Assembly (NCBI GenBank): GCA_016927275.1
Contig: JAFGMW010000095.1
Coordinates: 9,247 to 73,246 of the forward strand
Source: Pseudomonadota bacterium
GTDB taxonomy: Bacteria; UBA10199; 2-02-FULL-44-16; JAAZCA01
Length of the DNA stretch: 64,000 bases
Direction: 5' to 3'
Shown: positions 5,726 to 32,510 of the stretch, piece after piece
Position numbering within the stretch: the first letter of the stretch is position 1
Layout: each line of letters starts with the position of its first letter
Program-made: the position numbers and the translations under genes
The notes under the pieces: generated by a model
The model's input: only the letters and a program-made list of their open reading frames with translations
Told to the model about the DNA's origin: nothing
Databases searched by the model: none

Positions 5726-5955
5726 CCCGCGCCTTCCCCCTTTGAGTTTTGATACACCATCGGGCAGCAGATGACAATCGTCCGCAACGCGGCGGCGCAT
5801 CTGCCGGCAAACGGCCGCACGGCAAGGGTTGCAGGGCGGAGGCCCCGGGCGGCGGCGGGGGAAATTTGCCCTTGTTTTCGGAGGGGCCCCCGGATATACA
5901 GCTTCGCAATATTCAGATATCTTTACGTTTTTTTGTCTCAGGAGGAAGCGAAGAC

Positions 5956-7140
5956 ATGGATAAGAAAAAAGGGGGCTGCCCCGGAAAGGCCAAATACCTC
6001 TCAGGGAAGAGGATCCTCCCTGAGCCGATCAGCGGCGCCACCAGCATCACAGAGCTCATCGACAACATGGACGCCTACAACGGGGGGAGGCTCCGGACAG
6101 CGTGCCACCTGATGAGGGACCGCTACTCGAAGGACGACGTGACCGTGGGGCTGTCGCTGGCCGGCGCGCTCACCCCTGCGGGGCTGGGGCCCTCCTCGGT
6201 CATCCCGCTCATGAACCACGGCTTCGTGGACTGGATCTCCGCCACAGGCGCCAACATGTACCACGACATCCACTACGCGTTCGACCTGCCGCTCTTCCGG
6301 GGCAGCCACAACGTGGACGACGCGGACCTGCGGGCCAAGGGCGTGACCCGCATCTACGACATCCTCTTCGACTACGAGGACGTGCTCATGGAGACCGACC
6401 GCAGGCTCCGCGAGATGCTGGTGCGGCCCGAGTTCCAGAAGGAGATGGGCACGCGGGAGTTCTACCACCACCTCGGCAGGCTGCTGGACGAATACGAGAG
6501 GAAGAACAGCCTGGGCCAAGTGAGCATCGTGGCGGCCGCATACCGCAACGGCATCCCGATCTTCACCTCATCCCCCGGCGACTCCACCATCGGCATGAAC
6601 GTGGCCGGCGTGGAGCTTCTGGCCGAGGCCTCGGGGCTCCTCAATAAATTCAGGCTCAAGATAAACCCGAGCATCGACGTGAACGACTCGACCGCCATCA
6701 TCCTCAACGCGAAGCGCTACGAGAAGGGGAAGACCGGCGTGATCCTCATCGGCGGCGGGAGCCCCAAGAACTTCATGCTCCAGACCGAACCGCAGATCCA
6801 GGAAGTGCTCATGATCCCGGAGATGGGCCAGGACTACGACATCAACATAACCGACGCCAGGCCCGACACCGGAGGCCTCTCGGGCGCCCCGCCCTCCGAG
6901 GCCGCGAGCTGGGGCAAGATCGACCCGAACCAGCTCGACGAGACGGTGACCGCCTACCTGGACGTGACCGCGGCATTCCCGATGATGGTCGCTTACACCA
7001 TACAGACGACCAGGCCCAAGAAACAGAAGAGGCTCTACGACAGGGGCGAGGAGCTGCGCAAGAAGCTCATAGAGTCGTATCTGGAGAACAACAAGGAAGT
7101 GGAACACCTGCGCGGCCTCATAAGGAAACTCGGGTCATAG
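5956..7140 (+). CDS. deoxyhypusine synthase-like protein (homospermidine synthase family)
   Basis: DHS-family features (ITELIDNMDAYNGGRLRTA, SLAGALTPAGLG, SSPGDSTIGMN, ILIGGGSPKN); start set at ATG 5956 preceded by GGAGGA RBS; adjacent decarboxylase. Confidence 0.75.
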   Translation: MDKKKGGCPGKAKYLSGKRILPEPISGATSITELIDNMDAYNGGRLRTACHLMRDRYSKDDVTVGLSLAGALTPAGLGPSSVIPLMNHGFVDWISATGANMYHDIHYAFDLPLFRGSHNVDDADLRAKGVTRIYDILFDYEDVLMETDRRLREMLVRPEFQKEMGTREFYHHLGRLLDEYERKNSLGQVSIVAAAYRNGIPIFTSSPGDSTIGMNVAGVELLAEASGLLNKFRLKINPSIDVNDSTAIILNAKRYEKGKTGVILIGGGSPKNFMLQTEPQIQEVLMIPEMGQDYDINITDARPDTGGLSGAPPSEAASWGKIDPNQLDETVTAYLDVTAAFPMMVAYTIQTTRPKKQKRLYDRGEELRKKLIESYLENNKEVEHLRGLIRKLGS

Positions 7141-7152
7141 AGGGGGGAAGAG

Positions 7153-8286
7153 ATGAAAGACAGGCTCCTGGAGCTGGCGAAGCACCACGGCACTCCCCTC
7201 TTCGTAGTGGACCACGAGAGGATAAGGGAGAACTACCGGGCGTTCAAGAAACACCTGCCGCGAGTGCAGTGCTACTACGCGGTGAAAGCGAACTCCAACC
7301 AGGAGATCATAAAGACCCTCTTCAAGGAGGGGGCGAGCTTCGACGTGGCCTCCTACAACGAGTTCATGCAGGTCTACGAGTACCTCGTCCTCTTCGAGGA
7401 GAAGGAGAAGGAGTTCTACATCTGGGACAAGATCATCTTCTCCAACACCATCAAGGACAGGGGCACGCTGCAGAAGATAAAGAAATACAAGCCCCTGATG
7501 ACCTACGACAACAGGGACGAACTCAAGAAGATAAAGGAGCACTGCGAGAGCGCGGGGCTGGTGCTGCGCCTCAAGGTCCCGGACACCGGCTCCCAGGTGG
7601 AGATGGGATCGAAGTTCGGGGCGGAGCCGGCCGACGCGGCGAACCTTATAAAGGAGGCGTTCGACCTGGGGCTCTCGGTCGAGGGGCTCTCCTTCCACGT
7701 GGGCAGCCAGTGCGTAAATTTCGACAACTACGTGGCCGCCCTCCAGCTCGCCTCGGAGATCTTCCACGACTCGCGCAAGAAGGGCTACAAGTTTAACATA
7801 GTCGACCTCGGCGGCGGATTCCCCGCGCCCTACGACGCGCAGGTCCCGGAATTCGCGAGGCTCGCGGAGATCATCGGTTCGGAGTGCGCGAGGCTCTTCC
7901 CGAAGGACGCGGAGATAATCGCGGAGCCGGGCAGGTTCATGGTCGCGACCGCGGCGACGCTCGTGGCCGAGATCATCGGCAAGGCGCGCCGCGACGGCAA
8001 GGTCTTCTACCACATCAACGACGGCGTCTATCACACCTTCTCGGGCGTGGTCTTCGACCACTGGATCCCGAACTTCCACGCCTTCCGGGAGGGGAAGACC
8101 GAGGTCTGCGCGGTGGTCGGCCCCACCTGCGACAGCTTCGACAAGATATCTCTCTCCGAGCAGCTGCCCGCCGACCTCCAGATCGGCGATTTCCTCTACA
8201 CCGGAAACATCGGCGCGTACAGCGTGGCGTCGTCGACGAAGTTCAACGGCTTCGACGGCGCGAAGATCCTGCATATAAACAATTGA
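7153..8286 (+). CDS. PLP-dependent group IV decarboxylase (ornithine/lysine/arginine decarboxylase family)
   Basis: YYAVKANSN (PLP-Lys motif), GASFDVAS, HVGSQC, GGGFP, CDSFD motifs of Orn/DAP/Arg decarboxylase family 2. Confidence 0.8.
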   Translation: MKDRLLELAKHHGTPLFVVDHERIRENYRAFKKHLPRVQCYYAVKANSNQEIIKTLFKEGASFDVASYNEFMQVYEYLVLFEEKEKEFYIWDKIIFSNTIKDRGTLQKIKKYKPLMTYDNRDELKKIKEHCESAGLVLRLKVPDTGSQVEMGSKFGAEPADAANLIKEAFDLGLSVEGLSFHVGSQCVNFDNYVAALQLASEIFHDSRKKGYKFNIVDLGGGFPAPYDAQVPEFARLAEIIGSECARLFPKDAEIIAEPGRFMVATAATLVAEIIGKARRDGKVFYHINDGVYHTFSGVVFDHWIPNFHAFREGKTEVCAVVGPTCDSFDKISLSEQLPADLQIGDFLYTGNIGAYSVASSTKFNGFDGAKILHINN

Positions 8287-8313: not shown

Positions 8314-8739
8314 ATGAAGAAGACGGTGATATGCTTGGCAGTTCTCGCGTCCCTGCTCGCCCTCGCTCTGGCCGCCCATGCCCGCGCTGAGTGCAAGGTC
8401 GGCTCAAAGGCGCAGGTTCTCTGGAAGGGGAGCTGGTATCCGGCCTCGGTAAAGAAGATGAAGGGCGATCAGGCATACATCCACTATGACGGTTACAATA
8501 ACTCCTGGGACGAGTGGGTAAGCCCGGAGCGGATCAAGTGCACAGTCGCCGCCGCCGCGACGGCCAAACCCGCCTCGTTCTCGGAGGGCGACGCGGTATC
8601 GATCAAGTGGAAGGGCACATGGTACGATGCCCACGTGATCGGCGTGAATAAGAAAAAGGACTCCTGGAAGATCCACTACGACGGTTACAACAGCTCCTGG
8701 GACGAGTGGGTGGGTGCGGATCGCATCAGGACGAAGTGA
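8314..8739 (+). CDS. secreted protein with two tandem Tudor/Agenet-like (SH3-fold) repeats
   Basis: Signal peptide; two ~50-aa repeats (VLWKGSWYPASV...IHYDGYNNSWDEWVSPERI / IKWKGTWYDAHV...IHYDGYNSSWDEWVGADRI); RBS AAGGAGG upstream. Confidence 0.55.
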   Translation: MKKTVICLAVLASLLALALAAHARAECKVGSKAQVLWKGSWYPASVKKMKGDQAYIHYDGYNNSWDEWVSPERIKCTVAAAATAKPASFSEGDAVSIKWKGTWYDAHVIGVNKKKDSWKIHYDGYNSSWDEWVGADRIRTK

Positions 8740-8837: not shown

Positions 8838-10961
8838 TCAGGGCAACGGGTAGAATGTCGACCCCATGAACCCCAGCGCATCCTTGGTCGCCCCCGTGAT
8901 AGTGGCGGCCGGGCTGCACGTAGCAGGCGCTGTGAAAGTGCACGACGTAATACCTGCTGCAGAGCCGTTGAAGATATAGGTAAGACCGTTAGTGGGTGTC
9001 CAGTACTGAGGTGCGCCGAGTGCGATGTCGTCGAACCCGTCGTTGTTGAAATCGACTCCACCGCTCAGCCCTAGGCTCAAGAGATCAAAGTTGGCAATGT
9101 TTCCGAGGATCTTGGTGTCGGCCTGCGCATCGGTAAGAGCCGCCGCAAGATTCTTTCCTAGAAAAACGTATGCTGCGCCGGGATCTGCAGCAGGTGTAGC
9201 TGTAAAGCCACCGATCAATAAATCGTCTTTGCCGTCGCCGTCGACATCTCCTGCGGCAGTGAGCGTGTTGCCGAACTTGTCGTCGTTTCCGCTGGTTTCA
9301 GAAATGACCGTCGACGCAGAAGCCGGGGTAAGCGTGGTGCCTGCCAGCACATTTCCCGGGAATACGTAGACTTTGCCGGCATTGACGACCGGCTCGCCCA
9401 CCATCACATCCGCGATGCCGTCGCCGTCCACGTCGCCTGCGCCAGCGACGGTGTTGCCGAATTTGACCGTTCCGGTGATGATCGCGTCGGCAGCCGCAGC
9501 ATTACGCGTGGCTGCAAGGGCCGCGGCGCCGTAGAAAACGTAGGCGCGGTTCTTGTCCGACCCGACGACGATGTCATCGAGGCCGTCGCCGTTCACGTCG
9601 CCCGCTCCGTCGAGCATCATCCCCAGGACATCGCCGGATTGGCCAGCAATCGACTGGGTAGCATTCGCCACGTCGAGCGCGCCCGCAAGGGAAGCGCCGC
9701 CCGCAAAGATGTGCACACTGCCGTCGCCGCCGGTCAGCGGGGCAGCGACGATCACATCGTCGTACCAGTCTCCGTTCATGTCGCCAGCACCTGCGACCGA
9801 ATAGCCGAGGTCGTCGTTGCCTGCTGCGCCCATGCTGATAGTGGCGAGGGCGTCCGATGCGTCGAGCGTGCCGGTGAGGCCAGTTCCGCCTGCAAAGAGA
9901 TAAGCCTTGCCTTTGCGGGTACCCGATGTCTGCGGCGCACCCACGATGAAGTCCTCGTAGCCGTCGCCGTTCACGTCGCCCACCATCTTATTCGACACAG
10001 CCAGGTAATCGTGCTGCGCACCCGCGAACGACGCGCCAGGAGCACATGCGGCCGAGAGGTCGCAGGTCGGAATGCCCGTAGCTGTCCCGTAGAAGATGTA
10101 GAGCTTGCCGTCGCGCGTCAAAGAACCGGCATAGAGCGCACCCACGAGCAGGTCCGCATACCCGTCTCCGTCTATGTCGTTCCTGGTCAGCGTCGTGAAC
10201 GATGCGCCGGCGACCGCCGTTCCGGAGGCATAGACTGTGTGCGTAGTGCGATACCCGAGCCGCGCGTCAGGCGTGAAGAGGACGGATGTGCCGTCTGCCG
10301 CCCAGGCGTACGCCCCCGCGACCGCGGTGCCGGCGCCGTCCTTCAGCTCTATCGCAGCCTCGAAGTCCTGCTGTGCCGCAGCGTCGGTGATCGGTGTGTC
10401 CGGGATATACTTCACCTTCACAGAGCGCGGGATCGGAGCTGCCGTGAACTCGATCTCCGTGCCGTCCAGTTTTACGAGCTTGCCCGTGGCGCCGGGGGCG
10501 ACCCCGCCGGCCGTTGTGAAGATTGCCGTGAAACCCTCGAACGCCGTACCAGTTGCGTAGTTGATCGCCTGTGAGAGGCAGGCAGCATACTGCGTGCCTG
10601 CAGCGAGGTCCGCTGCCGGATCGAGCACGCATTCGGTCATGTTCGGACAGCTGATCGATGCGGCAACAGCCCCAGCAGGGTTACAGACCGTATCGTCGTA
10701 GGCGTCCTTGGCCGTCTGAGCTGCCGCTGCGGGGACCGGCGTGATGAAGAAGCTCGTGCCGGTGACGGTGGCGGTGCTCACCATCTGGTTGAACGTGTAG
10801 GAAAAGCTGCTGTCCACCGGGACGTCCTTACTGCCGCCGATCGTGTTGAGGGATACCGTATCGCTCGGAGTCCCCCCTCCCCCGCCGCATCCAGCGACTG
10901 CTGCCGCGACGACCGCCGCTGCCCCCAAGACCGCCAGAAAAGCCCTGCCACGAATCTTCAT
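8838..10961 (-). CDS. FG-GAP/integrin-alpha-like beta-propeller repeat lipoprotein
   Basis: Lipoprotein signal (MKIRGRAFLAVLGAAAVVAAAVAGC); repeated DxNGDGxxDhhhGAP calcium-binding blades (DVNGDGYEDFIVGAP, DMNGDWYDDVIVAAP, DVDGDGIADVMVGEP, DVDGDGKDDLLIGG, DFNNDGFDDIALGAP); start moved to internal ATG with RBS. Confidence 0.75.
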   Translation of the reverse strand: MKIRGRAFLAVLGAAAVVAAAVAGCGGGGGTPSDTVSLNTIGGSKDVPVDSSFSYTFNQMVSTATVTGTSFFITPVPAAAAQTAKDAYDDTVCNPAGAVAASISCPNMTECVLDPAADLAAGTQYAACLSQAINYATGTAFEGFTAIFTTAGGVAPGATGKLVKLDGTEIEFTAAPIPRSVKVKYIPDTPITDAAAQQDFEAAIELKDGAGTAVAGAYAWAADGTSVLFTPDARLGYRTTHTVYASGTAVAGASFTTLTRNDIDGDGYADLLVGALYAGSLTRDGKLYIFYGTATGIPTCDLSAACAPGASFAGAQHDYLAVSNKMVGDVNGDGYEDFIVGAPQTSGTRKGKAYLFAGGTGLTGTLDASDALATISMGAAGNDDLGYSVAGAGDMNGDWYDDVIVAAPLTGGDGSVHIFAGGASLAGALDVANATQSIAGQSGDVLGMMLDGAGDVNGDGLDDIVVGSDKNRAYVFYGAAALAATRNAAAADAIITGTVKFGNTVAGAGDVDGDGIADVMVGEPVVNAGKVYVFPGNVLAGTTLTPASASTVISETSGNDDKFGNTLTAAGDVDGDGKDDLLIGGFTATPAADPGAAYVFLGKNLAAALTDAQADTKILGNIANFDLLSLGLSGGVDFNNDGFDDIALGAPQYWTPTNGLTYIFNGSAAGITSCTFTAPATCSPAATITGATKDALGFMGSTFYPLP

Positions 10962-11087
10962 ATTACCTCCCCGGAAGGAATATATTGCGTTAGCGGCGAA
11001 CCTGCTGAACTGATATTTCTTACTAATAGCGCACCCCCTGCAAGTCAACCTTTCAAAAAACGGGACGACAAAGAAATTGTTTCGCCG

Positions 11088-12776: not shown

Positions 12777-12806
12777 ATCGCGGGCTCGTCGATTTGAAAT
12801 GTTCGA

Positions 12807-12839
12807 ACAGGGAGGGGGATGCCCCTCCCTGTTTTTTTT
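12807..12839 (+). terminator. rho-independent terminator after DUF2934 gene
   Basis: acagggaggggg-atg-cccctccctgt hairpin followed by T8. Confidence 0.7.
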
Positions 12840-12870
12840 GCGTGAGATCATCGCGCCGGGAGAAAAAGAC

Positions 12871-14829
12871 ATGCCCGTCACCTGGAAGAGGACAGAGCTG
12901 GACGAGATGGACTGCATGCTCCGCGAGGCGTGGGAGCACAACGCACTCCACATGAACGAGGTTTCGGGCAGACCGCTGGCCCACGCCGACGGCGACGACC
13001 TCGACGGCGACGGCAACCGGGGCGAGCGCATCACCGTCTCAGAGACGGTGGGATACAAGCTCTTCATGGAACTCCTGATGGCGACGATGGCCCGAACGAG
13101 CGGCGACGCCGAACTCGAAACCAGGGCGATGGAGAATTTCGACAGGGCGTGGGGATGGGCGGAGCGGAACATGCAGCGCAGCGCCCTCGCATCTGCGTAC
13201 GATCCGGTCGCCGGGGCGCTCGTCCCGATACCGGAAGGCAAGCGCGACTCGCTCCTCGCGTGGCGATACGTGCCGGGCGCCGGGGTGATCCACCACGCAA
13301 AGAATCGTTCCGACGGCATCTTCATAGACGGCCTCGACGGCGCCCCCGACGGCGACCTCTTCACCGCCGCCTCGCTGAGATTGGCGGCGGTGCTCTGGCC
13401 CGAACGACAGGATTACCTCGCGGCGGCGGAGGATATCGCGGTGGACATCCGCGCAAAATACGTGGCCGAGATCGGCGGCGAGCCGTATCTGTTGGGCGGC
13501 GACGAGTTCGTGCGGATATCCGGCATCAATCCCTCGTACTCGTTCGAGGCGGTCTACGACATGATGGGCGAGCTCGACCCCTCTCACGCGGCCGACTGGC
13601 AGAGGCTCAAGCAGAGCTCCATGAAGGCGGCGGTGGCCGGCGCCGACTCCACGCTATCGGCCGGCGGACCCTACATGTCGAACGGCAGGACGATAGGCTT
13701 CAGGGCGAGGCGGATAGAGGGCAGCTCGAACATGCCGCCGAACTGGCTCACATACGACGGCTCGGGGTTCGGCGACAACGAGTGGTTCGATCCCATCGAC
13801 TGGATATCGGGCTGGGACGGGCTGCGCACCCTCTGGATGAAGGCCGCCTACTTTCTCTACGACGGGAACGAGGCTGCGCGCAGGTATCTGCAGGACGACG
13901 CCGGAACGAAGGAGGACTTCGGTCCCTACGGGTTCCTGAAGAATCATCTCCTGAAACACGGCAGGCTGCCGGCCGGCTTCGGCATAGACGGCTCCTCCTC
14001 AGGGCCCGAGCTCTCGGTGATGAACCTCACCGAACCCAACGCCTTTTCGCTCGGCATCTATCTCGGCTTCTTCTACGCGGCCGGCGACATCGAGGCCGCA
14101 TCCAGGATGCTGGGCGGGCTCGTCGACTCGTATCACACGCAGCAGGTCCCCGGGCCGATCGGTATCGGCGAAGGGACCTTCGCCGAGGTCCGCACCGAGG
14201 GCGACCTGGACTACTTCGGGGACTGCTGGGCCTGGTTCGGCATGGCGATGGCCCGCGGGGCGGTCGAGGACCTCTTCGGCCTCTACAGGGAGTGGCGCGC
14301 GGAGAACGTCATGCCGCCCGCTTCTCCCGCCCCCCTACTCCCCTCTTATTTCGAGGTGAAGCCGGGCGGGATGGAATTCGCGCGCGGCATGGACCTGATG
14401 AAATCGAACATGTGGATCTCGGCGTTCGACGGCTGCTCGAGAAAGCTCTTCGGCGGCTACGCCTGCGAGGGCCGCGCGAAGGAGTGGTATCTCGGCGGCG
14501 TGGGGATAGGGCTGGGGCGAAACCCCGCGTGGGGCATCGAGAGGGAATACGACGGGCTCTTCATCGACGCCCCGGGCGCGCAGGGCCGCGTGAAGATCGA
14601 GCTGCACACCGACCGCCGCATCTACGTTCACGAGGCGTCGGCATCCAACGCCGCCTCCATGTACGTCCCGTTCACCGCCTTCAGGGAAGAGATCGATTAC
14701 GCGCCGAAGGGCAGAAGCTTCGATCCGAAGGTGGATCGCGTGGGCAAGATCCAGGTGATCGGCCTGGGAGCGACCGCCGACGGGGAGGTGGAGTTCGTCC
14801 TCAAGGAAATCCGCGCAGTGAAGAAATAG
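12871..14829 (+). CDS. hypothetical protein, possibly (alpha/alpha)6-barrel glycoside-hydrolase-like
   Basis: 653-aa ORF with good coding character, Trp/Gly/Asp-rich segments reminiscent of glycoside hydrolases; no signal peptide; start placed after the upstream terminator. Confidence 0.45.
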   Translation: MPVTWKRTELDEMDCMLREAWEHNALHMNEVSGRPLAHADGDDLDGDGNRGERITVSETVGYKLFMELLMATMARTSGDAELETRAMENFDRAWGWAERNMQRSALASAYDPVAGALVPIPEGKRDSLLAWRYVPGAGVIHHAKNRSDGIFIDGLDGAPDGDLFTAASLRLAAVLWPERQDYLAAAEDIAVDIRAKYVAEIGGEPYLLGGDEFVRISGINPSYSFEAVYDMMGELDPSHAADWQRLKQSSMKAAVAGADSTLSAGGPYMSNGRTIGFRARRIEGSSNMPPNWLTYDGSGFGDNEWFDPIDWISGWDGLRTLWMKAAYFLYDGNEAARRYLQDDAGTKEDFGPYGFLKNHLLKHGRLPAGFGIDGSSSGPELSVMNLTEPNAFSLGIYLGFFYAAGDIEAASRMLGGLVDSYHTQQVPGPIGIGEGTFAEVRTEGDLDYFGDCWAWFGMAMARGAVEDLFGLYREWRAENVMPPASPAPLLPSYFEVKPGGMEFARGMDLMKSNMWISAFDGCSRKLFGGYACEGRAKEWYLGGVGIGLGRNPAWGIEREYDGLFIDAPGAQGRVKIELHTDRRIYVHEASASNAASMYVPFTAFREEIDYAPKGRSFDPKVDRVGKIQVIGLGATADGEVEFVLKEIRAVKK

Positions 14830-14849: not shown

Positions 14850-15782
14850 TCACGGACAGTTCGGGCCGACGGTCATGTGTAACTTCGTGCCCGCGGAGCA
14901 GCGGCGCAGGCCGATCGAGTCGTCGTATGCGTAGCCGTACACGGTCTTCTTGCACGCGGTGTGGATGTGTTCCACGTAGCCGGTGCCCACCACGGGGCCC
15001 GCCCTGCACTCCTCGGCGCCTATTGGCGGCGTGGGGCAGCAGTAGATCACCGGAGGGTCCGTGTCCTCGCCAAGACCCAGCCCTCCGTATGTGGGATAGT
15101 TGAATTTCTTGCAGGGCGAATAGCAACCGATAACAGGGGCGCCGGCGTCCTCCTTCACCCTGAGGTCTTCGTCAGCATACTCCGGAAAGACCGTGCCCCC
15201 CTGCCCCGCGCTCAAGTCGTCGGCGGTCGGACACTCCGCAAGGCTCAGGGCCGCGCAGTCCACGGCAGAACAGGGCTGACCCTGGTCGTCCAGCGTGTCG
15301 CCGGTGACCGCCACGGTGAACGGGAATGTGTATCCGTCCACGGCGCTCGAGTTCCAGTAGGTGTCGATCATCCTGTCCCCCTGCGGGGTGAATCCGCACT
15401 GTGTCTCATCCGCCAGCGTGCAGCCCCATGTCGCCTCGATCTTGGAGTCCACAGGCGGCGGGCAACCGCCGGCCGGGCACGGGTCGGAGCTCTGGCCGAT
15501 CTCGCAGTTCTCGCCGCTCGCGTCGCAGCCCTTCTTGGGCCAGAACCTGGTGGAGGCCTGGCCAGCCTCCGGGATATCGTAATCGTGATATGCGCCCGGC
15601 TCGATCTTCACAACATCGGGGGTCGAGGCCGGCATGTTCTGCTGCTGTATCCAGATGGCGTAGGCGCAGCTGTTGGTGACCCTCAGCCGCTTCGTCTGGG
15701 TGTCGTCGCCGCCCCCTCCGCCCCCCCCTCCGCACCCGCAGAGAAGAGCCACAGCCAGCGCCAGGCACAGCTTCTTATTCAT
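14850..15782 (-). CDS. thaumatin-like (PR-5 family) lipoprotein
   Basis: Lipobox LAVALLCGC; RVTNSCAYAIWI..FWPKKGCDASGENC..16 Cys pattern resembling thaumatin/osmotin fold; start at internal ATG (MNKK). Confidence 0.6.
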   Translation of the reverse strand: MNKKLCLALAVALLCGCGGGGGGGGDDTQTKRLRVTNSCAYAIWIQQQNMPASTPDVVKIEPGAYHDYDIPEAGQASTRFWPKKGCDASGENCEIGQSSDPCPAGGCPPPVDSKIEATWGCTLADETQCGFTPQGDRMIDTYWNSSAVDGYTFPFTVAVTGDTLDDQGQPCSAVDCAALSLAECPTADDLSAGQGGTVFPEYADEDLRVKEDAGAPVIGCYSPCKKFNYPTYGGLGLGEDTDPPVIYCCPTPPIGAEECRAGPVVGTGYVEHIHTACKKTVYGYAYDDSIGLRRCSAGTKLHMTVGPNCP

Positions 15783-15891
15783 AGATTCCCCCTCGTCGTT
15801 CCCGCGCTTATCGCATTGCGGGGGGTCCCAGGTCAAACGGATAGAGTCAACGGGCGATCCTGCCCGAGCCGACACAGACAAGCGTCAAAGC

Positions 15892-15950: not shown

Positions 15951-16034
15951 AGCTCGTGTGACAGCTCGTGTCCATGAACCGAATTGACAACCCTCTCGAT
16001 CAGGAACATTATCCCCCACTAAAAGGAGGTGCGT

Positions 16035-17141
16035 ATGCGCACTTTTGGCAGGGGTATCGTGGCAATGGGTGCTGCATTGGTTCTGCTGTTCGGTCTGGCC
16101 GCATGCGGCGGAGGTGGCGGCACGCCTACGCCTACTGAGCCGACCGCGACCTACGGCGGGGCCGCGACCGCGGGGGACATCTTCGTGATCAAGATGGACT
16201 ATCCGGCAGTCGGCAAGGCGACCATCACGCGCTCTGAGACCGACGGCACGCTCGTGGGGTCGAAGGAGATGAGCTACACGGCCAACGGCACCCGCTATAC
16301 ATTCACCGACGAGGACAGCAATTCGTTCGAGGCTCTCATGGTCGCGGACACCATGCTCACCATGTTTCTGCCGGCCACTGACGAGAAGGACATCATCGTT
16401 GCGGTCATAGTGGATCCGGACATGACTTCGACCGCAGAGGCGGCCGCCATCCTGAAGAACCACGACTACATCCTCACGCAGTTCAGGCACGACGAGAAGG
16501 GCGTGAAATGGGTCTGGTCGAACGTGGACGCGGACGGCGTGGTTACGGGCCATAAAGCCAATGAAGGGAATACCCTGCCCTACGACCTCGATGACGTTGA
16601 CACGACCAATAACTTCGACCCCGGCATGGACGTGGACAACCTCGTGTACAACGCGGAGACGAGCGGCTTCACGCTCACGGTGGGCGACGAGATATGGACA
16701 TACTATTTCACGGAGTCCGGGCTGGGCGTCATCGACAAGGGGCCGGACAAGGGCATCCGCTTCAACATGATCAAGCCCGCGACATATGATCCGACCGGCA
16801 TGGTTGCAGTAGGAGACATCTACGACACGCTGTTTTACGGCCGCCGGTCCGAGACTGAGGAGGGAACGACGCAGGGAACGATAACGGTCACGGCTGTCAC
16901 GGCGAATTCCTTCACGGTCGACGTGGACAACGGCAGGGATCCTGTGATGACGGGCATCGTGATCACGGCCGACCTGAGCGATCTGTGGCGCGGCTTCTAC
17001 CGGCTGCCCGCCACCATAGATGCGGTGCCCCAGAACGCGGTGGTCCAGCTCGTCGGCTCGGACGCCATGATCTTTGCAGGCAAGGCCCCGGCCGCCAATC
17101 CGTGGCAATACGAATACGGCATCGGCGTAAAGCGGAAGTAA
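16035..17141 (+). CDS. hypothetical lipoprotein
   Basis: ATG with AAGGAGG RBS 5 nt upstream; lipobox LLFGLAAC followed by Gly/Thr/Pro linker. Confidence 0.6.
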   Translation: MRTFGRGIVAMGAALVLLFGLAACGGGGGTPTPTEPTATYGGAATAGDIFVIKMDYPAVGKATITRSETDGTLVGSKEMSYTANGTRYTFTDEDSNSFEALMVADTMLTMFLPATDEKDIIVAVIVDPDMTSTAEAAAILKNHDYILTQFRHDEKGVKWVWSNVDADGVVTGHKANEGNTLPYDLDDVDTTNNFDPGMDVDNLVYNAETSGFTLTVGDEIWTYYFTESGLGVIDKGPDKGIRFNMIKPATYDPTGMVAVGDIYDTLFYGRRSETEEGTTQGTITVTAVTANSFTVDVDNGRDPVMTGIVITADLSDLWRGFYRLPATIDAVPQNAVVQLVGSDAMIFAGKAPAANPWQYEYGIGVKRK

Positions 17142-17187: not shown

Positions 17188-17619
17188 ATGAAGAAGCTTT
17201 TGGCGATGCTGGTGGCAGCGGCGTTCGCTCTGCCTGTGCTCGCGCAGGCGGAGAAGTGCAAAGAGCCGGAGAAGACGGATCTGAAGGCCGGCATGAAGGT
17301 CGTGGCGCAGTGGCAGGGCGACAGCTGGTGGCTGGCGAAGATCGACTCGATCGGCAAAAACGGCCTCATCGACGTGACCTACTCCGACAACACCAGGGGA
17401 AGGAACAAAAGGCAGGATCAGGTCGCGCGCTACATCTACTCCGACACCAGCGCCCCGCCCTGCTTCAAGGAGGGCGACAAGGTCGTGGCGCAGTGGAAGG
17501 GCGACAACTGGTGGAAGGCCCGCATCGACAGGATAGAGGGCGACAAGGCGAAGATCACCTACACCGACGGGGAGAAGGGCACGCGCAAGCTCACGGAGAT
17601 GGTCCGCGACCCGTGGTGA
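17188..17619 (+). CDS. secreted protein with two tandem Tudor/Agenet-like repeats (paralogue of 8314-8739)
   Basis: Signal peptide; repeats VVAQWQGDSWWLAKIDSI...DVTYSD / VVAQWKGDNWWKARIDRI...KITYTD. Confidence 0.55.
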   Translation: MKKLLAMLVAAAFALPVLAQAEKCKEPEKTDLKAGMKVVAQWQGDSWWLAKIDSIGKNGLIDVTYSDNTRGRNKRQDQVARYIYSDTSAPPCFKEGDKVVAQWKGDNWWKARIDRIEGDKAKITYTDGEKGTRKLTEMVRDPW

Positions 17620-17834: not shown

Positions 17835-17892
17835 CATCATTGTTGTTGTGCTGTAACTCTTGTTTGGGTAGTCATCTCCCGTGAGGGAAAGG

Positions 17893-19590
17893 ATGAAAAA
17901 GTGTCTTCTACATAGAGCGATGATTTTGATGGCCGTAGTGCCGCTTGCATACGTACTGGCGGCCGGATGCGGTTCAGGCAGCCTCGATTATTTCGGAGAC
18001 GGCAGCGGCTTGGAGCAACCCCCTGAGGGGCCCTCGCCGCCTGTCCCGCCACGTACCCCTGTGGTGCTCTCGCTCTCTGCGACTCCGTGGACTCTCGAGA
18101 ACAGCATAGAGTGGAGGGTGGTATCCGGCGACGCGGACTCCTTCAATCTCGCATGGCAAGTGGACGAGGAGGCCAGCGCCTCAGTGATTGCTTTGTCCGA
18201 GGCCGCCGGAGAGATCGAGGACGTGTCCTCTCCTTTTGTGCATGACGGCCTGTCCAACAACGGCGTGGAATACTGCTACAGGATCGTCCCCGTCTTTGAC
18301 GGCGAAAAGGGCGACACCTCCGACGAGGTCTGCGCCATGCCCGACACCGTAGGAATTCCGGACGACTCCTTCGGGGCCGAAGGAGTGATCACGGACGATC
18401 TGGGCGGCGGCCTCGATGAAATCGGCTACGCGGTCGGGCACGACGCCTCAGGCAGGGCGCTGGTCGCAGGCTATGAGTTCAACGCGGCCCTGGGTTCGAA
18501 GATGGCGCTGTGGCGCTTTCTTTCCGACGGATCGCCCGATGCCGGCTTCGGCGCAGGAGGCCTTGCCAGCTACGACGTAGGCAAGCCCGACAGGATCTGG
18601 GACGGCAATGCCCTTGCGATAGACGCGAGCGGCAGGGTGATCGTGCCCGGGTTCATCAACGACGCTCCCCTTGTGAACACCGCGACGATCTGGAGATACG
18701 GCCCCGACGGGGCGCTGGACGCAACTTTCGACGGCGACGGAATCTATCGGTTTGCCAATCCGCACGAGGGCGGGAGGGGAAATTACGACTGGATGTACGA
18801 CGTCAAGGTCGATCCGAGCGGGAGGATAGTGATCGCGGGCATCAGCTTCTTCGCAGCCGACTGGCTGCTGCACATGAGCATCTGGAGGCTGCTCGACGAC
18901 GGCACGGTCGATCCCGCGTTCAACGGCGGCGTGCCCGTGGATTACATAAATCCCGGCAGCGGGAGCGACTACGGCTTTGCGCTTGAGCTCGATGCGGATG
19001 GAAGGATAGTGATCGGCGGTTCCAGCATGGAAGGAGGCTGGCCCAGGGGAAGGGTTGCGCTCTGGAGATACCTCGACGACGGCACGCCGGACCCCTCGTT
19101 CAACGGCGGCACACCGATCATAATGACCAGGGTCGCCGGGGACACGGACGACGCGATCAGGGCGCTTGTGATCGATGCGGAGGAAAGGATCCTCGCAGCG
19201 GGGTCGAGGGACAACGCAAGTGGCGGCAAGGACCTCTGCATCTGGAGATTCCTCGAAGACGGGTCGCTCGATCCGGCCTTCGGCGCCGCCGGGGAGATCA
19301 GGTATGACGCAGGCGCAGCAAACGAGGACATCGCCTATGGGATCGCAGAGGACGTGCACGGCAGGATAGTGGTCGGCGGAGAGATGGGCGAAAAGGCGGT
19401 GGTCCACCGCTACCTCGAAGATGGGTCGCTGGACCCGGCCTTCGGAGAGGGCGGAGTCTATGAGTATGATAAAAGCGGCGACGACGCTGCCGGCGGCATT
19501 ACGATAGATTCCCGCGGCAGGATCCTTACCACGGGCCACATCAAGGGCCCGGGCGGCAATCTCGACATGGCGGTCTGGAGACTCAAGTAG
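17893..19590 (+). CDS. delta-60-type repeat domain lipoprotein
   Basis: Lipobox VLAAGC; >=7 repeats of ~55-60 aa built around [LIV]WR[FYL]xxDGSxDxxF(G/N)GG(G) (ALWRFLSDGSPDAGFGAGG, IWRYGPDGALDATFDGDG, IWRLLDDGTVDPAFNGG, LWRYLDDGTPDPSFNGG, IWRFLEDGSLDPAFGAAG, HRYLEDGSLDPAFGEGG). Confidence 0.65.
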   Translation: MKKCLLHRAMILMAVVPLAYVLAAGCGSGSLDYFGDGSGLEQPPEGPSPPVPPRTPVVLSLSATPWTLENSIEWRVVSGDADSFNLAWQVDEEASASVIALSEAAGEIEDVSSPFVHDGLSNNGVEYCYRIVPVFDGEKGDTSDEVCAMPDTVGIPDDSFGAEGVITDDLGGGLDEIGYAVGHDASGRALVAGYEFNAALGSKMALWRFLSDGSPDAGFGAGGLASYDVGKPDRIWDGNALAIDASGRVIVPGFINDAPLVNTATIWRYGPDGALDATFDGDGIYRFANPHEGGRGNYDWMYDVKVDPSGRIVIAGISFFAADWLLHMSIWRLLDDGTVDPAFNGGVPVDYINPGSGSDYGFALELDADGRIVIGGSSMEGGWPRGRVALWRYLDDGTPDPSFNGGTPIIMTRVAGDTDDAIRALVIDAEERILAAGSRDNASGGKDLCIWRFLEDGSLDPAFGAAGEIRYDAGAANEDIAYGIAEDVHGRIVVGGEMGEKAVVHRYLEDGSLDPAFGEGGVYEYDKSGDDAAGGITIDSRGRILTTGHIKGPGGNLDMAVWRLK

Positions 19591-20973: not shown

Positions 20974-23900
20974 ATGAGGAGCGGAGTTCGCCATGTCGTT
21001 CCGGCGATATTTGCTCTTGTATTGCTGGTTCAGTCGATATCGGCGGCGCCGCCCGCTTTTGTCATAGCCGAGCCTGAAGCGCACGACTACGGGAGCGTCA
21101 GGGTGGGCGACTTGTCGGAGGCCGTGCGCATAACGGTCACAAACACCGGCGAAAGATCTGCGCGGATAAATTCAATTAGGTTTGCGGAGCGCCTCAACTT
21201 CTCGATCGTTGAGGAGAGCTCCACCTGCCTGGTCGGACTCAAACTGCCGGGCGGAGGCTCCACCTGCGTCATAGACATCGTATTCGGCCCCGTCGAGTCA
21301 GGCGACCTTGCCGACACGTTGACCGTGGGCACCAACCGCGGCAGGCCGAAGATCTCCTTGAGCGGAAAGGGCCTGGCCCCCGACGCGCTCATCGAGCCGG
21401 CGTCCAGGGATTTTCTCGATCAGCCGATCGGCAAGCCGAGCGCGGCGCAGGCGTTCAAGGTCACCAACACAGGGGACGCCGATTTGCATGTCTCGGCAAT
21501 CGACATCGCCGGACCCGATTCCTCGGATTTTGCGCTGATGAGCGAAACGTGCGTGGGTGAAGCGATCGCGCCCCTCGACAGCTGCAATTTTGAAATCGTC
21601 TTCACGCCAAGAGGTCTCGGTCCGCGGAGCGCGCAGGCCGAGATATCGGATGACGCGGTCTCCGGGAGTCCGCAGATAGTCCCCTTGAGCGGCAACGGCA
21701 TAGCGGACGTGAGCCTGGCCCCTTCGGCGCACGACTTCGGAGACCGGCCGATCGGCGAGAGGAGCCCGGCGCATGAGTTCGTCGTGACCAACGGCGGCGC
21801 CGCGGACGTGAACATATCCCTGGTTGCCGTCTCCGGCGACCACCCGGCCGACTTCGCAATACAGGCGGACGGCTGCACCGGCGAGAGCCTCGCGCCGGAA
21901 GAGACCTGCAGCATCATAGCGGACTTTTCACCGGCCGGCGTGGGCGGAAGAAGCGCCCTGCTCGAGGTCCATCACGATTCCGCGGCCGCAAGCCCCCTGG
22001 TCTCGGCGCTCCTCGGCACCGGCACTTCGGGCGACGTGAGCGTCACCCCCGCAGCGGTGAGCTTTCCCGATCAGCTCATTCTGACCGGCAGCGCCCCTGT
22101 CACAGTGACCGTGGAAAATACGGGGGCCGTCGATCTCACCGTAGGCGCCCTGGCGATCGGAGGGGTCGACGCTTCGGAGTTCGGCCTGGAGAGCGACCTG
22201 TGCTCCGGCCAAACGCTCGGGCCGGCGGTCACCTGCACCTTTGATGCGGTATTCGCGCCCGCGACCGTCGGCGTCAAGGATGCGCGCGTCGACATCCCCA
22301 ACGACGTGATCGTCGTCACCGTCGGATTGACAGGCGAAGGCGTGGCCCCAGACGCTGCGGCGGAGCCGGGCGAGCTCGCTTTCGGCGATCAGCCTGTGGG
22401 CAGGCCGAGCCCGCTGCTCACCGTGACGGTGACCAACACCGGCGGCGCCGACCTGAACGTCTCGTCCGTATCGATAGCCGGCGCGGACGCGGCGGACTTC
22501 GCGATATCCAGAAACACATGCCTGGGCGCTCCCGTGGCGCCGGCCGGCACGTGCACCTTCGCGGTCGGATTCACGCCGGGCAGCCTCGGGGAAAAGGAGG
22601 CGCAGGCCGAGGTCGCGGACGACGCGATATCCGGCAGCCCCCAGATCGTATCGCTCAGCGGCAACGGGATTTCGGACGTGAATCTCAATCCAGCGGACTA
22701 TGATTTCGGCGAACAGCTCGTCGGGACAAGCGACACCAGGACCTTCGTGCTCACGAACGTCGGCGGGGCGGACCTGACGATAGCGACCATAGTCCCGGCC
22801 GGGCCCTCTGCCGCCGACTATACGATCCCGGATGCGGGCGACGGCTGTTCCGGCGCAACGGTCGCGCAGGACGACACATGCTCGTTCGACGTCGAGTTCT
22901 CGCCCGGCGGCGTGGGCGGCAGGCAGGCGCATGTGGAGATAACAAGCGACGCCGCATCGGGCAGCCCCGATACTCTGCCCCTCTTCGGGACCGGCATAGC
23001 GTCCGACGTGGCGATCTTCCCCATGAACATCGATTTCGGCGATCAGCTCGTCGGCAGCGAAAGCGATCCGCAGGAGATCACGGCGACCAATACCGGCGAG
23101 GCGGTTCTCAACGTCGACACAGTCATGCTGGCCGGTGCCGATGCGGGCGATTTCGAAATCTCCATTGACGGCTGCACAGGCAGCAGCGTCATGCCTTCGC
23201 TGTCCTGCTCGGTCACCGTGGTCTTCAGACCTTTACTCGTGGGCGACAAGACAGCGCAGGTCGAGATATACGACGACGCGATATCCGGAAGCCCTCAGAC
23301 CGTGCCGCTCGGCGGCAAGGGCGTGCCTCCCATGCCTTCCGTGAGGCTCGTGCCTGTGAGCGTCAACTTCGGCAGCCAGGAGGTCGGCACCACAGGCCCG
23401 CCGCAGTTGATAACCCTCACCAACAGCGGAATGGCGCCGCTCAACATAACCGCGATCACGGCCAGCGGCGAATTCAGCCAGACCAACGACTGCCCCGCAG
23501 CGCTGGCGGCCGGAGCCGACTGCACGATAAGCGCCTCGTTCAGCCCGAGCAGCGAAGGCGCCAAGGCCGGCGCAATCGAGGTGACAGACGATGCGGCCGA
23601 CAGCCCTCAGAGGGTCGCGCTCAGCGGCACGGGCAGCGCGGCGCCGGTGTCCGCAAACCTCTCGATCACAAAGGCGGTGGCGCCCGACACGGCGCAGTGC
23701 AGGATCGACGTGACCTGCACCATCGTGGTGACGAACACCGGGAGCAGCGCTGCGGAAAACGTCGTCGTCATGGATACGATGCCGGGCGGACTGGCATTTG
23801 TTTCGGCATCGGCAAGCCAAGGGGCGTGCGAATCCGGCGAAGCGTCATGCAGCCTCGGAAGGCTCAATGCAAGCGACAGCGCCTCAGTCGCCGTCGTCGT

Positions 23901-24162
23901 GAGGCCGACCGCTGCCGGCACGATCACGAACACGGCGACCGCCTCCAGCGATTCGATATCTCAACCGGTGAGCGCCTCGGCGGTCCTCACCGTGAACGAC
24001 GTAGACTGCGGCGGCGACGGAGGCGGCGGAGGATGCTCCCTTGCGCGTGAGACGCCTCGACCGCGAGACAGGGTCCTCTCTGGAATCCTGGCATCGATGG
24101 CCGCGATCGGCGCGCTTCTCGCTCTGCACTTCGCACGCGCGAGAGGCCGCTCAAACCCGTAA
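20974..24162 (+). CDS. large cell-surface protein with ~9 tandem ASH/choice-of-anchor-D Ig-like domains, a DUF11-type domain and a C-terminal Cys-TM-basic anchor
   Basis: Signal peptide; ~95-aa repeats (DFG..PIG..S....VTNTGxADLxVSxV.I.G.DxxDF......C.G..L.P...C.F.V.F.P...G...A...I.DDAxSGSPQxVxLSGxG); DUF11-like segment (LSITKAVAPD...TNTATASSD); C-terminus CGGDGGGGGCSLARETPRPRDRVLSGILASMAAIGALLALHFARARGRSNP. Confidence 0.7.
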   Translation: MRSGVRHVVPAIFALVLLVQSISAAPPAFVIAEPEAHDYGSVRVGDLSEAVRITVTNTGERSARINSIRFAERLNFSIVEESSTCLVGLKLPGGGSTCVIDIVFGPVESGDLADTLTVGTNRGRPKISLSGKGLAPDALIEPASRDFLDQPIGKPSAAQAFKVTNTGDADLHVSAIDIAGPDSSDFALMSETCVGEAIAPLDSCNFEIVFTPRGLGPRSAQAEISDDAVSGSPQIVPLSGNGIADVSLAPSAHDFGDRPIGERSPAHEFVVTNGGAADVNISLVAVSGDHPADFAIQADGCTGESLAPEETCSIIADFSPAGVGGRSALLEVHHDSAAASPLVSALLGTGTSGDVSVTPAAVSFPDQLILTGSAPVTVTVENTGAVDLTVGALAIGGVDASEFGLESDLCSGQTLGPAVTCTFDAVFAPATVGVKDARVDIPNDVIVVTVGLTGEGVAPDAAAEPGELAFGDQPVGRPSPLLTVTVTNTGGADLNVSSVSIAGADAADFAISRNTCLGAPVAPAGTCTFAVGFTPGSLGEKEAQAEVADDAISGSPQIVSLSGNGISDVNLNPADYDFGEQLVGTSDTRTFVLTNVGGADLTIATIVPAGPSAADYTIPDAGDGCSGATVAQDDTCSFDVEFSPGGVGGRQAHVEITSDAASGSPDTLPLFGTGIASDVAIFPMNIDFGDQLVGSESDPQEITATNTGEAVLNVDTVMLAGADAGDFEISIDGCTGSSVMPSLSCSVTVVFRPLLVGDKTAQVEIYDDAISGSPQTVPLGGKGVPPMPSVRLVPVSVNFGSQEVGTTGPPQLITLTNSGMAPLNITAITASGEFSQTNDCPAALAAGADCTISASFSPSSEGAKAGAIEVTDDAADSPQRVALSGTGSAAPVSANLSITKAVAPDTAQCRIDVTCTIVVTNTGSSAAENVVVMDTMPGGLAFVSASASQGACESGEASCSLGRLNASDSASVAVVVRPTAAGTITNTATASSDSISQPVSASAVLTVNDVDCGGDGGGGGCSLARETPRPRDRVLSGILASMAAIGALLALHFARARGRSNP

Positions 24163-24460: not shown

Positions 24461-27187
<2,727 letters not shown>

Positions 27188-30355: not shown

Positions 30356-30488
30356 AGGCGGGCGGCCTGTTGTACGATTTTATAACAGCCTGAGCGGAGA
30401 TAGCGGCATGAAAGCAGAGAACGCGGACCGTATAAAGGAAATGGACGGGGATGGTAATGTCGTCATAAGATGGCACAGAGATCTGAAC

Positions 30489-32510
30489 ATGAAGAAGACT
30501 GCCGGCCTGATCGGTGTATCCTTGATGATGGCGCTGCTTTTGTGCCTCATATCAGCCTGCGATCAAAATCCCTGCGTGATCAGTTACTGGGTCGCGACCG
30601 ACGGAAGCGACTCGGCCAGCGGTGACGAGGTACATCCCTTTCTCACCCTGGCGCATGCGCGGGATGTGATCCGCTCTCACAAGGATCGCGGCAGGTGCTC
30701 TATCAACGTGAACATCAAGGGGGGCACGTACAGGCTTGCCGAACCGCTGACCTTCAATGGCAGCGACTCCGGGGCCAAGGACGCGGAGATCACCTATCAG
30801 TCGGCCCCCGGAGAGGAGGTCGTGATCTCCGGCGCAGAGCAGGTGAGCGGCTGGACGCTCCATGACGCCGCACTGAACATCTGGAAGGCACAGGTGATCG
30901 CCGATACGATGCCTCGGCAGCTGTACGCGAACGGCCGGCGAGCGACGCGGGCCCGCACCCCGGACTATCCCAACTACTATTTCCCCGGCGATACGGGGTA
31001 CAAGTACTTCTATCTCATCGGCACCGACCCGCAGATCCCGCCGACATGGAGCAATCCGGCCCTGGTGGAGGCGGTCACCGTCACGCAGTGGAAGATGATG
31101 CGCTGCCCGGTCGCCGAGGTCATCGACAACATCGTCGACTATTCAGTGATCATGGCCACCCCCTGCTGGACGAACGCAAACGTCTTCCCCTATCCGTGGA
31201 ACTTTCATCTTTTGAGCTGGTGGGAGAACGCCTATGAGTTCCTCGACGAGCCCGGCGAGTGGTATCTGGACCCGGGCACGAAGACCCTCTATTACATCCC
31301 CCGCGCGGGCGAGGACATGGCCGCCGCCGAGGTTGAGCTGCCGGTGCTGGAAAAACTGGTGGATGCGGCAGGCGACGCCTCCTCACCCGTGAGCAATATC
31401 GGCTTCAAGGGCCTGAATTTCATGTACGCGACGTGGTATGGGCCCAACGGCGCCGATGGCTACGCCCTTGACCAGAGCGGCTTCCATCTGGTGGGGACCG
31501 ATCACTCTCCCAACATCATAGGACACGACCCGAACGCGGTGGGCATCCCGGGCAACGTGAGCTTCCTATACGCGCAGGACATCGCCTTCGAGGACAACGC
31601 CTTCGCCCACATGGGCGCGGTCGCGCTCAACTTCGGGACCGGAAGCCAAAACAACGAGATCGTGAACAACACCTTCACCGACACCTCCGCGGCTGCCATC
31701 CAGCTCGGCGGGATCGCTTTGCAGGATCATCACCCCGAGACGGACTCGCAGCTCACCAGGGACAACCGCATCGCAAACAACCTCATCGAGTACGCGGGAC
31801 AGGAGTTCTACGACGCCCCGGGGATCTACATCGGCTTCACGACGCGCTCCACGGTCGAGCACAACGACATAATGCACGTCCCCTGGTCGGGCATCGCCAT
31901 CGGATGGGGCTGGGGCCTGCTCGATCCGGGAGGCTTTCCGGGGCTGCCGCACGCGACGCAGTATGAATGGGGGGTCTACGACACGCCCTCCGCGGCGCAG
32001 GGAAATCAGATTCTCAACAATAAGATGCAGTATTTTCTCGAGAAACTCTGGGACGGCGGCGCCATCTACACCACCGGCTTTCAGGGGACCTCGTTGGCGG
32101 ACGGCCAGGTCATCTCGGGCAACGTGGCGATGAACAAGCGCCCGGAGGCGGGCGGCAATACGTTCTATACCGATGGCGGCAGCCGTTACGTCACTCTCAA
32201 GGAAAACGTATCGCTGGGCAACCCGCAGGGGTTTGTGGACTTCGGTCCGTGCCTCAAGGACTCCTCATTCCCCGAGCTCTGCCTCACCACGGGCATCGTG
32301 CCGTACGGCGCCGACATGGGTGGATGCGTGCCGTACGGGGATCTGGTTTTTGAAAGCAACTACCTGCGCGATCATCTGGATTTCTACGACATCTGCACGA
32401 ACGATTACTACCCGGGCGCCCCCTTCAACATGACATTCATCGACAACGTGAAGGTGTCGAACGCAAGCGAGGTGCCGGCATCGATCATCGAAGCTGCCGG
32501 ATGCCTGTGA
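30489..32510 (+). CDS. right-handed parallel beta-helix repeat lipoprotein (pectin-lyase-fold; possible glycan hydrolase/lyase)
   Basis: Lipobox LLLCLISAC; periodic N/G/D-rich beta-helix rungs (NNEIVNNTFTD, NRIANNLIEYAG, GNQILNNKMQY, SGNVAMNKRPE). Confidence 0.6.
   Translation: MKKTAGLIGVSLMMALLLCLISACDQNPCVISYWVATDGSDSASGDEVHPFLTLAHARDVIRSHKDRGRCSINVNIKGGTYRLAEPLTFNGSDSGAKDAEITYQSAPGEEVVISGAEQVSGWTLHDAALNIWKAQVIADTMPRQLYANGRRATRARTPDYPNYYFPGDTGYKYFYLIGTDPQIPPTWSNPALVEAVTVTQWKMMRCPVAEVIDNIVDYSVIMATPCWTNANVFPYPWNFHLLSWWENAYEFLDEPGEWYLDPGTKTLYYIPRAGEDMAAAEVELPVLEKLVDAAGDASSPVSNIGFKGLNFMYATWYGPNGADGYALDQSGFHLVGTDHSPNIIGHDPNAVGIPGNVSFLYAQDIAFEDNAFAHMGAVALNFGTGSQNNEIVNNTFTDTSAAAIQLGGIALQDHHPETDSQLTRDNRIANNLIEYAGQEFYDAPGIYIGFTTRSTVEHNDIMHVPWSGIAIGWGWGLLDPGGFPGLPHATQYEWGVYDTPSAAQGNQILNNKMQYFLEKLWDGGAIYTTGFQGTSLADGQVISGNVAMNKRPEAGGNTFYTDGGSRYVTLKENVSLGNPQGFVDFGPCLKDSSFPELCLTTGIVPYGADMGGCVPYGDLVFESNYLRDHLDFYDICTNDYYPGAPFNMTFIDNVKVSNASEVPASIIEAAGCL

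Follow-up and report, generated by a model that had tools for sequence, protein, structure and literature searches.

What does a thaumatin-like protein do in a bacterium? The question is raised by a gene in a stretch of 64,000 nucleotides from a Pseudomonadota bacterium (GenBank assembly GCA_016927275.1, contig JAFGMW010000095.1, positions 9,247 to 73,246), the whole of which is called the window below. The gene is a complete coding sequence of 310 codons plus stop on the minus strand (14850-15782, stop codon at 14850-14852), and its product of 310 amino acids is identical to NCBI MBN1283412.1, recorded as 'MAG: hypothetical protein JXA24_06550 [Proteobacteria bacterium]' (MAG, metagenome-assembled genome). 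The gene is therefore known as a sequence, yet it is unannotated. The analysis described here identifies its product as a genuine bacterial relative of thaumatin, the sweet-tasting plant defence protein, and as a member of a distinct 'long', 18-cysteine thaumatin-like subfamily. With a probability of roughly 0.6, the protein would be an envelope-tethered binder of beta-1,3-glucan, possibly also a weak GH152- or GH64-like glucanase, acting through a proposed scheme of export, lipidation and recognition of glucan in a cleft.

Membership of the thaumatin family is secure. Thaumatin (PF00314) is the sole Pfam match (E 9e-17, 61.9 bits against a gathering cutoff of 27.4), and the match covers positions 1-206 of the 209 of the profile; in NCBIfam the protein falls into no family. 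Searched as a single sequence against the chains of the PDB, the protein gave no match with phmmer, and a family profile was required. The profile built from an alignment of 49 homologues, which is the source of all conservation counts out of 49 given below, matches Pru av 2, osmotin, Jun a 3, Mal d 2 and other thaumatin-like proteins (TLPs) among these chains. With hhalign, the same alignment was compared with three classical TLPs (thaumatin, osmotin and Pru av 2, whose sequences were taken in part from HMMER alignment output), resulting in a probability of 99.8% and an E-value of 1.6e-26. An AlphaFold2 model based on this alignment (predicted local distance difference test 89.3, predicted template-modelling score 0.85) is disordered only in the leader and the linker, and the predicted structure has the three-domain thaumatin fold, with a beta-sandwich core and a disulfide-rich lobe. 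In a Foldseek search of the PDB with this model, the top 28 matches are all TLPs, the best being Mal d 2 (E 8e-15), and four TLPs with antifungal action, namely PR-5d, osmotin, zeamatin and NP24, rank among the top ones. Pfam, the family profile, the model, Foldseek and hhalign place the thaumatin domain at residues 31-310 (14853-15692, minus strand). A thaumatin- or osmotin-like fold had been proposed for this gene in an initial annotation, and the significant Pfam search and the agreement of structure prediction and Foldseek bear this out; the two strings quoted there, RVTNSCAYAIW at residues 34-44 and FWPKKGCDASGENC at residues 80-93, are literally present in the protein.

The gene itself has the features of a bacterial gene. 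The mechanical open reading frame (ORF) opens with a TTG at 15881; the ATG at 15782 is preferred because a Shine-Dalgarno-like GAGGGGGA, read from the sequence at 15787-15794 on the minus strand, lies 4 nt upstream of it, because it is the start recorded by NCBI and because a typical leader follows. The GC content at third codon positions (GC3) is 0.83, inside the range of the adjoining genes, without a compositional break at the gene, and the plus-strand ORFs that overlap it are high-GC shadow ORFs. Eukaryotic contamination or recent transfer was considered as the source of the gene and rejected because of the bacterial genes on the contig, the Shine-Dalgarno site, the lipobox and a GC3 like that of the neighbours. 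No paralogue was found within the 64-kb window and no Rfam element near the gene.

How the protein would be held at the envelope can be read from its N-terminus. The sequence MNKKLCLALAVALLCGC comprises a charged n-region (MNKK), a hydrophobic core and a lipobox, L14-C15-G16-C17, so that residues 1-17 (15732-15782, minus strand) form a lipoprotein signal peptide, and the mature protein is predicted to begin with C17 in lipidated form. The lipobox cysteine is kept in 47/49 aligned homologues, with A, T, V or S at position -2 and G, A or S at -1, and is followed in the homologues by a low-complexity linker that is poly-Gly/Ser or Pro/Ala-rich. Here, this linker is a flexible tether of low model confidence, GGGGGGGGDDTQT, at residues 18-30 (15693-15731, minus strand). 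A conservative lipobox pattern was found in 81 of the 123 close homologues examined and also in a minority (17/142) of more distant representatives. The distant bacterial relatives carry plain signal peptides or other architectures, and the lipid anchor therefore marks the close clade. The earlier proposal of a lipid anchor is thus supported by a lipobox that is conserved across the family. The membrane concerned is probably the outer membrane, since the residue at +2 is Gly and not Asp, a sorting rule that belongs to the Lol system of Escherichia coli and is applied here outside its lineage.

The mature protein (~30.7 kDa, isoelectric point 4.36) contains 18 cysteines. All 16 canonical thaumatin cysteines align one-to-one with those of thaumatin, osmotin and Pru av 2 at comparable spacing, and these are invariant in the family; the alignment of the cysteines agrees with the resemblance in cysteine spacing that had been noted initially. 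Beyond the canonical set there is one more pair, C121/C129, which is invariant in the subfamily and is carried by a subfamily-specific 20-residue insertion (residues 120-140; 15363-15425, minus strand) between the beta-strands 114-119 and 141-146. In total, nine disulfides are predicted. The loops of the disulfide-rich domain II are also enlarged (residues 185-247; 15042-15230, minus strand), as judged by a spacing between C184 and C220 of 36 versus 11 in thaumatin and between C224 and C248 of 24 versus 9. The C-terminal cysteine is universal in the family but displaced, in a GPNCP or FCP ending. The 'multiple CxxC pairs' of the initial annotation are not found, as the protein contains no literal CxxC motif; its close cysteine pairs are CxxxC (220-224), CxxxxC (102-107 and 171-176) and CC (248-249).

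Classical TLPs have an acidic cleft with a REDDD motif (PMC3048497). Three of its positions align cleanly in this protein, all coded on the minus strand: R79 (15546-15548) is the equivalent of Arg44 and is present in 49/49 homologues, D149, at the end of the N144 to D149 part (15336-15353) of a WNSSAVDG segment, is the equivalent of Asp102 (47/49), and D288, from the D287-D288 pair in YGYAYDD (14919-14924), is the equivalent of Asp185 (49/49). The Glu of the motif is most likely the invariant E116 (15435-15437; 49/49) in the strand 114-119, which is proposed as the equivalent of the cleft or catalytic residue Glu84 because of its strand position in the model. With the Glu placed in this manner, both members of a putative catalytic Glu/Asp pair of the GH152 type are conserved (E116 in 49/49, D149 in 47/49). 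The cleft residues R79, E116, D149 and D288 are also kept in the relatives from Microbulbifer, Legionella and Inquilinus.

The role of glucan binder is proposed because relatives of the protein are fused to CBM56 and glycoside hydrolase (GH) modules and because classical TLPs use their acidic cleft on beta-1,3-glucan. Classical TLPs bind, and in some cases hydrolyse, this polymer via the REDDD cleft (PMC3048497, PMC11800479), and the founding member of the CAZy family GH152 was a TLP from a fungus (PMC11800479, PMC3048497). CBM56 binds beta-1,3-glucan, and CBM56-GH64 is an established laminarinase architecture within a 'GH64-TLP superfamily' (PMC13251364). In relatives from Microbulbifer, at 37-38% identity to this protein, such modules are found together with the TLP domain. 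In M. litoralis (locus L017, 5350-6909), a signal peptide is followed by CBM56 and TLP, and in M. hainanensis (locus L021, 4453-8542), one ORF encodes a signal peptide, CBM56, GH16 and TLP and is followed by a CBM6-GH16 gene. The TLP domain in Microbulbifer is overlooked by the Pfam Thaumatin model at E<=1e-3. Among 81 multidomain relatives, Pfam detects CBM56 in 4, SKN1/KRE6 in 3, GH16 in 2, CBM6 in 2, ricin lectin in 2, X8 in 1 and GH64 in 1, in addition to others. We regard these fusions as the best functional evidence for the protein studied here. As an observation on the M. hainanensis locus itself, its CBM56-GH16-TLP and CBM6-GH16 genes resemble a laminarin-degrading pair.

The scheme that these features suggest would start with export through Sec, lipidation on C17 and cleavage by signal peptidase II, followed by oxidative folding in the periplasm, where the nine predicted disulfides would form. 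The protein would then be retained at a membrane, probably the outer one, by its Gly-rich tether of ~13 residues, and its cleft (R79, E116, N144, D149, D288 and aromatic residues) would bind chains of beta-1,3-glucan. Candidate ligands are laminarin and the wall glucan of fungi, oomycetes or algae. A slow cleavage of the chain might follow, in which E116 and D149 would serve as acid and base; such a mechanism has been proposed for the TLPs of GH152 and for the enzymes of GH64, which are related to them in structure. The evidence favours binding of beta-1,3-glucan by the protein, and catalysis is less certain than binding.

Several observations weigh against this role. The classical PROSITE thaumatin signature, which we take to be G-x-[GF]-x-C-x-T-[GA]-D-C-x(1,2)-[GQ]-x(2,3)-C (a pattern that was checked on a thaumatin sequence), is missing in the protein and in 269/269 collected relatives; the signature is diagnostic of classical TLPs and is not required by the Pfam family. 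In the cleft, the position of Asp97 is taken by N144 (N in 43/49, D in 6/49), and both HMMER and hhalign pair the segment TLAD125, and not E116, with the TLAE that contains Glu84. Of the acidic cleft of the initial annotation, R79, D149 and D288 are conserved and aligned; Asp97 is replaced in most members, and the equivalent of Glu84 is ambiguous. The relatives that carry the fusions are only 35-45% identical to this protein. For many TLPs that bind glucan, no hydrolysis can be measured, and the activities of some TLPs are of an unrelated kind. Finally, two family-specific peptide patterns recovered 39 genome loci from a set that represents each GTDB species by one genome. Glucan-utilisation genes, TonB receptors and sugar transporters show no conservation beside the TLP gene in these loci, and the window contains no glucan-utilisation locus. 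It had also been suggested that bacterial TLPs are rare and usually associated with glucan binding or antifungal activity. They are indeed uncommon, though documented, and no experimental evidence was found for glucan binding or antifungal action by a bacterial TLP.

Could the target be a glucan of the bacterium itself? The protein would then be a periplasm-facing factor for remodelling or binding a glucan of its own envelope or exopolysaccharide, and not a tool against foreign glucan. Lipoproteins can face the periplasm, the gene lies among genes for envelope and exported proteins with a weakly GH8/BcsZ-like gene directly downstream in convergent orientation, and the thaumatin-like domains of fungal SUN proteins remodel the organism's own wall (PMC13251364). 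However, neither in the window nor in the 39 related loci is the gene linked to a glucan synthase or to an operon for exopolysaccharide, the GH8-like neighbour is not conserved beside TLP genes elsewhere, and the modules fused in relatives are typical of degraders of foreign laminarin, which makes an own-glucan target unlikely. The same fusions indicate carbohydrate handling, a point that also speaks against a non-enzymatic toxin of the osmotin/zeamatin type, which would permeabilise the membranes of fungi or other eukaryotes upon contact or release. Such a toxin would fit with the antifungal TLPs among the top structural matches, with the acidic surface and cleft, which resemble those of antifungal TLPs (PMC3048497), and with close homologues in MAGs labelled Myxococcales or Polyangiales, groups that are often predatory. 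A lipid with a short linker is ill-suited to reaching a plasma membrane behind a cell wall, there are no toxin-delivery genes nearby, and no relative provides supporting evidence, so we consider a toxin improbable.

Two further functions known for members of the family have far lower probabilities. An enzyme inhibitor is very improbable, as the inhibitor TLXI is a short TLP with 10 cysteines and has neither domain II nor the acidic cleft (PMC3048497), whereas the protein described here has a full, expanded domain II and conserved cleft residues. The least probable is an effector that would enter host cells by delivery and mimic a eukaryotic protein, like LegT of Legionella, a thaumatin-domain protein known as a Dot/Icm substrate (PMC2824747). 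This idea is prompted by relatives at 34-39% identity in several Legionella species, one of them plasmid-borne, and by homologues in protists. It conflicts with the Sec/signal peptidase II leader and the nine predicted disulfides, which are incompatible with type IV translocation into the host cytosol; moreover, the C-terminal extension of ~380 amino acids of the Legionella proteins is missing here, and the genes scanned in the window include no secretion-system genes. A lipid-anchored binder of foreign beta-1,3-glucan is, in our view, the reading that best fits the evidence.

The surroundings of the gene were compared with the 39 loci, and none of its neighbours in the window recurs beside the TLP gene. 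The sole recurring 'neighbour' signal is the N-terminal Big_5 domain of longer TLP homologues, and the flanks of the Microbulbifer and Inquilinus loci are uninformative save for the adjacent CBM6-GH16 gene. The gene had been described as part of a cluster of exported proteins, and this agrees with the N-termini, read by eye: lipoboxes are present in the products of the genes starting at 16029 and 17881, and Sec-type leaders in those of the genes at 8314, 17188 and 20974. Convergent with the TLP gene, at a gap of 20 bp, lies a plus-strand gene (12799-14829) for a 676-residue protein without an obvious signal peptide. Over ~100 residues, this protein shows GH8/BcsZ-like matches that stay below threshold (E 2.6e-4 in Pfam; E 7.8e-7 in NCBIfam, well short of the cutoff), and its sequence has no match in the PDB. 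Possibly it is an (alpha/alpha)6 glycosidase that has diverged very far. It was rejected as a system partner of the TLP, with only sub-threshold matches to its name and no counterpart beside TLP genes elsewhere. Divergent from the TLP gene, on the plus strand, is a gene for a lipoprotein (16029-17141) with an LAAC lipobox and a Gly plus Thr/Pro linker like that of the TLP, for which no Pfam or NCBIfam family was matched; a sigma-70-like promoter match lies ahead of it at 15984-16012.

Other plus-strand genes encode small secreted proteins of 141 and 143 amino acids (8314-8739 and 17188-17619) with Sec-type leaders and tandem Tudor-knot/Agenet/chromo-like domains (Tudor-knot E 8.5e-18, Agenet E 1.5e-5). 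Such folds are familiar chiefly from the chromatin readers of eukaryotes, and exported bacterial versions are unusual; both genes are located within a few kilobases of the TLP gene, one on each side. The window also encodes several large, exported, repeat-containing proteins, namely a lipoprotein with delta-60/DUF5122 beta-propeller repeats (17881-19590, plus strand), a 1062-residue array of HYDIN/ASH/Cep192-type immunoglobulin domains with DUF11 (20974-24162, plus strand) and an FG-GAP and Big_5 protein (8838-11048, minus strand). At 5749-8286 on the plus strand, a gene that resembles deoxyhypusine synthase genes precedes one for an ornithine/arginine decarboxylase, which suggests a homospermidine or polyamine pathway. 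A 908-residue GH63/MGH1-like glycosidase (24461-27187, minus strand) and a beta-helix protein with a weak match to a GH141 insertion domain (30408-32510, plus strand) are unlinked to the TLP.

Homologues of the protein are numerous. A word-indexed search returned 143 homologues at 43-78% identity, all derived from metagenomes or MAGs, and an exhaustive phmmer search over 1.84 billion cluster representatives returned 426 clusters at E<=1e-3, 320 at E<=1e-10 and 146 at E<=1e-30. Among the loci, the close ones (52-65% identity) are from MAGs labelled Pseudomonadota, Deltaproteobacteria or Myxococcales, and close homologues were also observed in MAGs labelled Polyangiales. Loci at 34-42% identity are from Legionella, Microbulbifer, Inquilinus limosus, Rhodobacter, Pseudoxanthobacter-labelled MAGs and Acidobacteriota, with the Legionella relatives (34-39%) including L. 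impletisoli, L. yabuuchiae and one plasmid; loci at ~25% are from Stellaceae and Competibacteraceae. Eukaryotic representatives at ~40% identity are from the dinoflagellate Biecheleria cincta, an MMETSP transcript and Artemidia motanka. Distant bacterial relatives retain the extra cysteine pair and the motifs SKFEATWGC, WN/DxSAVDG and YAYAYDD. The long 18-cysteine subfamily is thus common to Legionella (six loci) and protists (three representatives) at ~35-45% identity. The Legionella relatives are amoeba-associated, 650-725 amino acids long with a large C-terminal extension, and in one case plasmid-borne. A subfamily common to amoeba-associated Legionella and protists suggests transfer between bacteria and protists, in either direction.

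Research on TLPs has dealt nearly always with those of plants, fungi and animals; only a handful of GH152 enzymes are characterized, and their mechanism is debated. A bacterial subfamily with a predicted anchor, a predicted ninth disulfide and fusions to bona fide beta-1,3-glucan modules in relatives would be a tractable prokaryotic system for finding out if glucan is bound or cut in the acidic cleft and for tracing the passage of the family between bacteria and protists. For annotation, a 'hypothetical protein' becomes a testable candidate for a glucan-binding lipoprotein; no new type of system is revealed. A wider and rather doubtful claim would be that the lipobox clade represents the first lipid-anchored, surface-displayed beta-1,3-glucan receptor or glucanase of the thaumatin type in bacteria, which would serve uncultivated deltaproteobacteria- and myxobacteria-like lineages in capturing laminarin or attacking fungal, oomycete or algal walls, and that it belongs to a previously undescribed long 18-cysteine subfamily of ~320-430 clusters at 50% identity, exchanged between bacteria, including Legionella, and protists. 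No description of a lipoprotein TLP or of the long 18-cysteine subfamily, and nothing specific on bacterial or marine TLPs, was found in the literature, the coverage of which was incomplete.

How does this protein compare with the known members of the family? Plant PR-5 proteins and TLPs (Jun a 3, 7P20; Pru av 2, 2AHN; Mal d 2, 3ZS3; osmotin; PR-5d) have a plain signal peptide, whereas the protein from this bacterial host has a lipoprotein leader and a Gly tether. It also has ~75 extra residues, made up of the 20-residue loop with the predicted ninth disulfide and the two enlarged domain II loops, as well as Asn for Asp97, no PROSITE signature and a C-terminus of GPNCP instead of FCP. With the GH152 enzymes TLG1 of Lentinula edodes and Bta13961 of whitefly, it shares the thaumatin domain and the presumed catalytic pair E116/D149; the characterized GH152 enzymes are all eukaryotic (PMC11800479). 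The laminaripentaose-producing beta-1,3-glucanases of GH64 are larger (360-410 amino acids) and not cysteine-rich, and the Pfam GH64 profile gave no match in this protein.

In bacteria, LegT is a Dot/Icm substrate with a thaumatin domain, and thaumatin has been listed among the 'eukaryotic motifs' of Legionella (PMC2824747, PMC4256840). LegT (lpg1328) was compared by description only, and the sequences compared are those of the other Legionella proteins retrieved. These belong to the same long subfamily, at 34-39% identity, and share the extra cysteine pair and the SKFEATWGC and YAYAYDD motifs; they differ by their length of 650-725 amino acids and large C-terminal extension from the 310-residue lipoprotein described here. 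A crystal structure of an actinobacterial TLP, from Amycolatopsis rifamycinica, is already present in the PDB (7P22). This protein is of classical size (~220 residues) and 15-18% identical to the one described here, its match length gives no sign of the insertions present here, and it represents a separate bacterial lineage of the family. With LegT and 7P22 documented, bacterial TLPs are therefore not new, and the protein described here is an uncharacterized variant of a well-known family.
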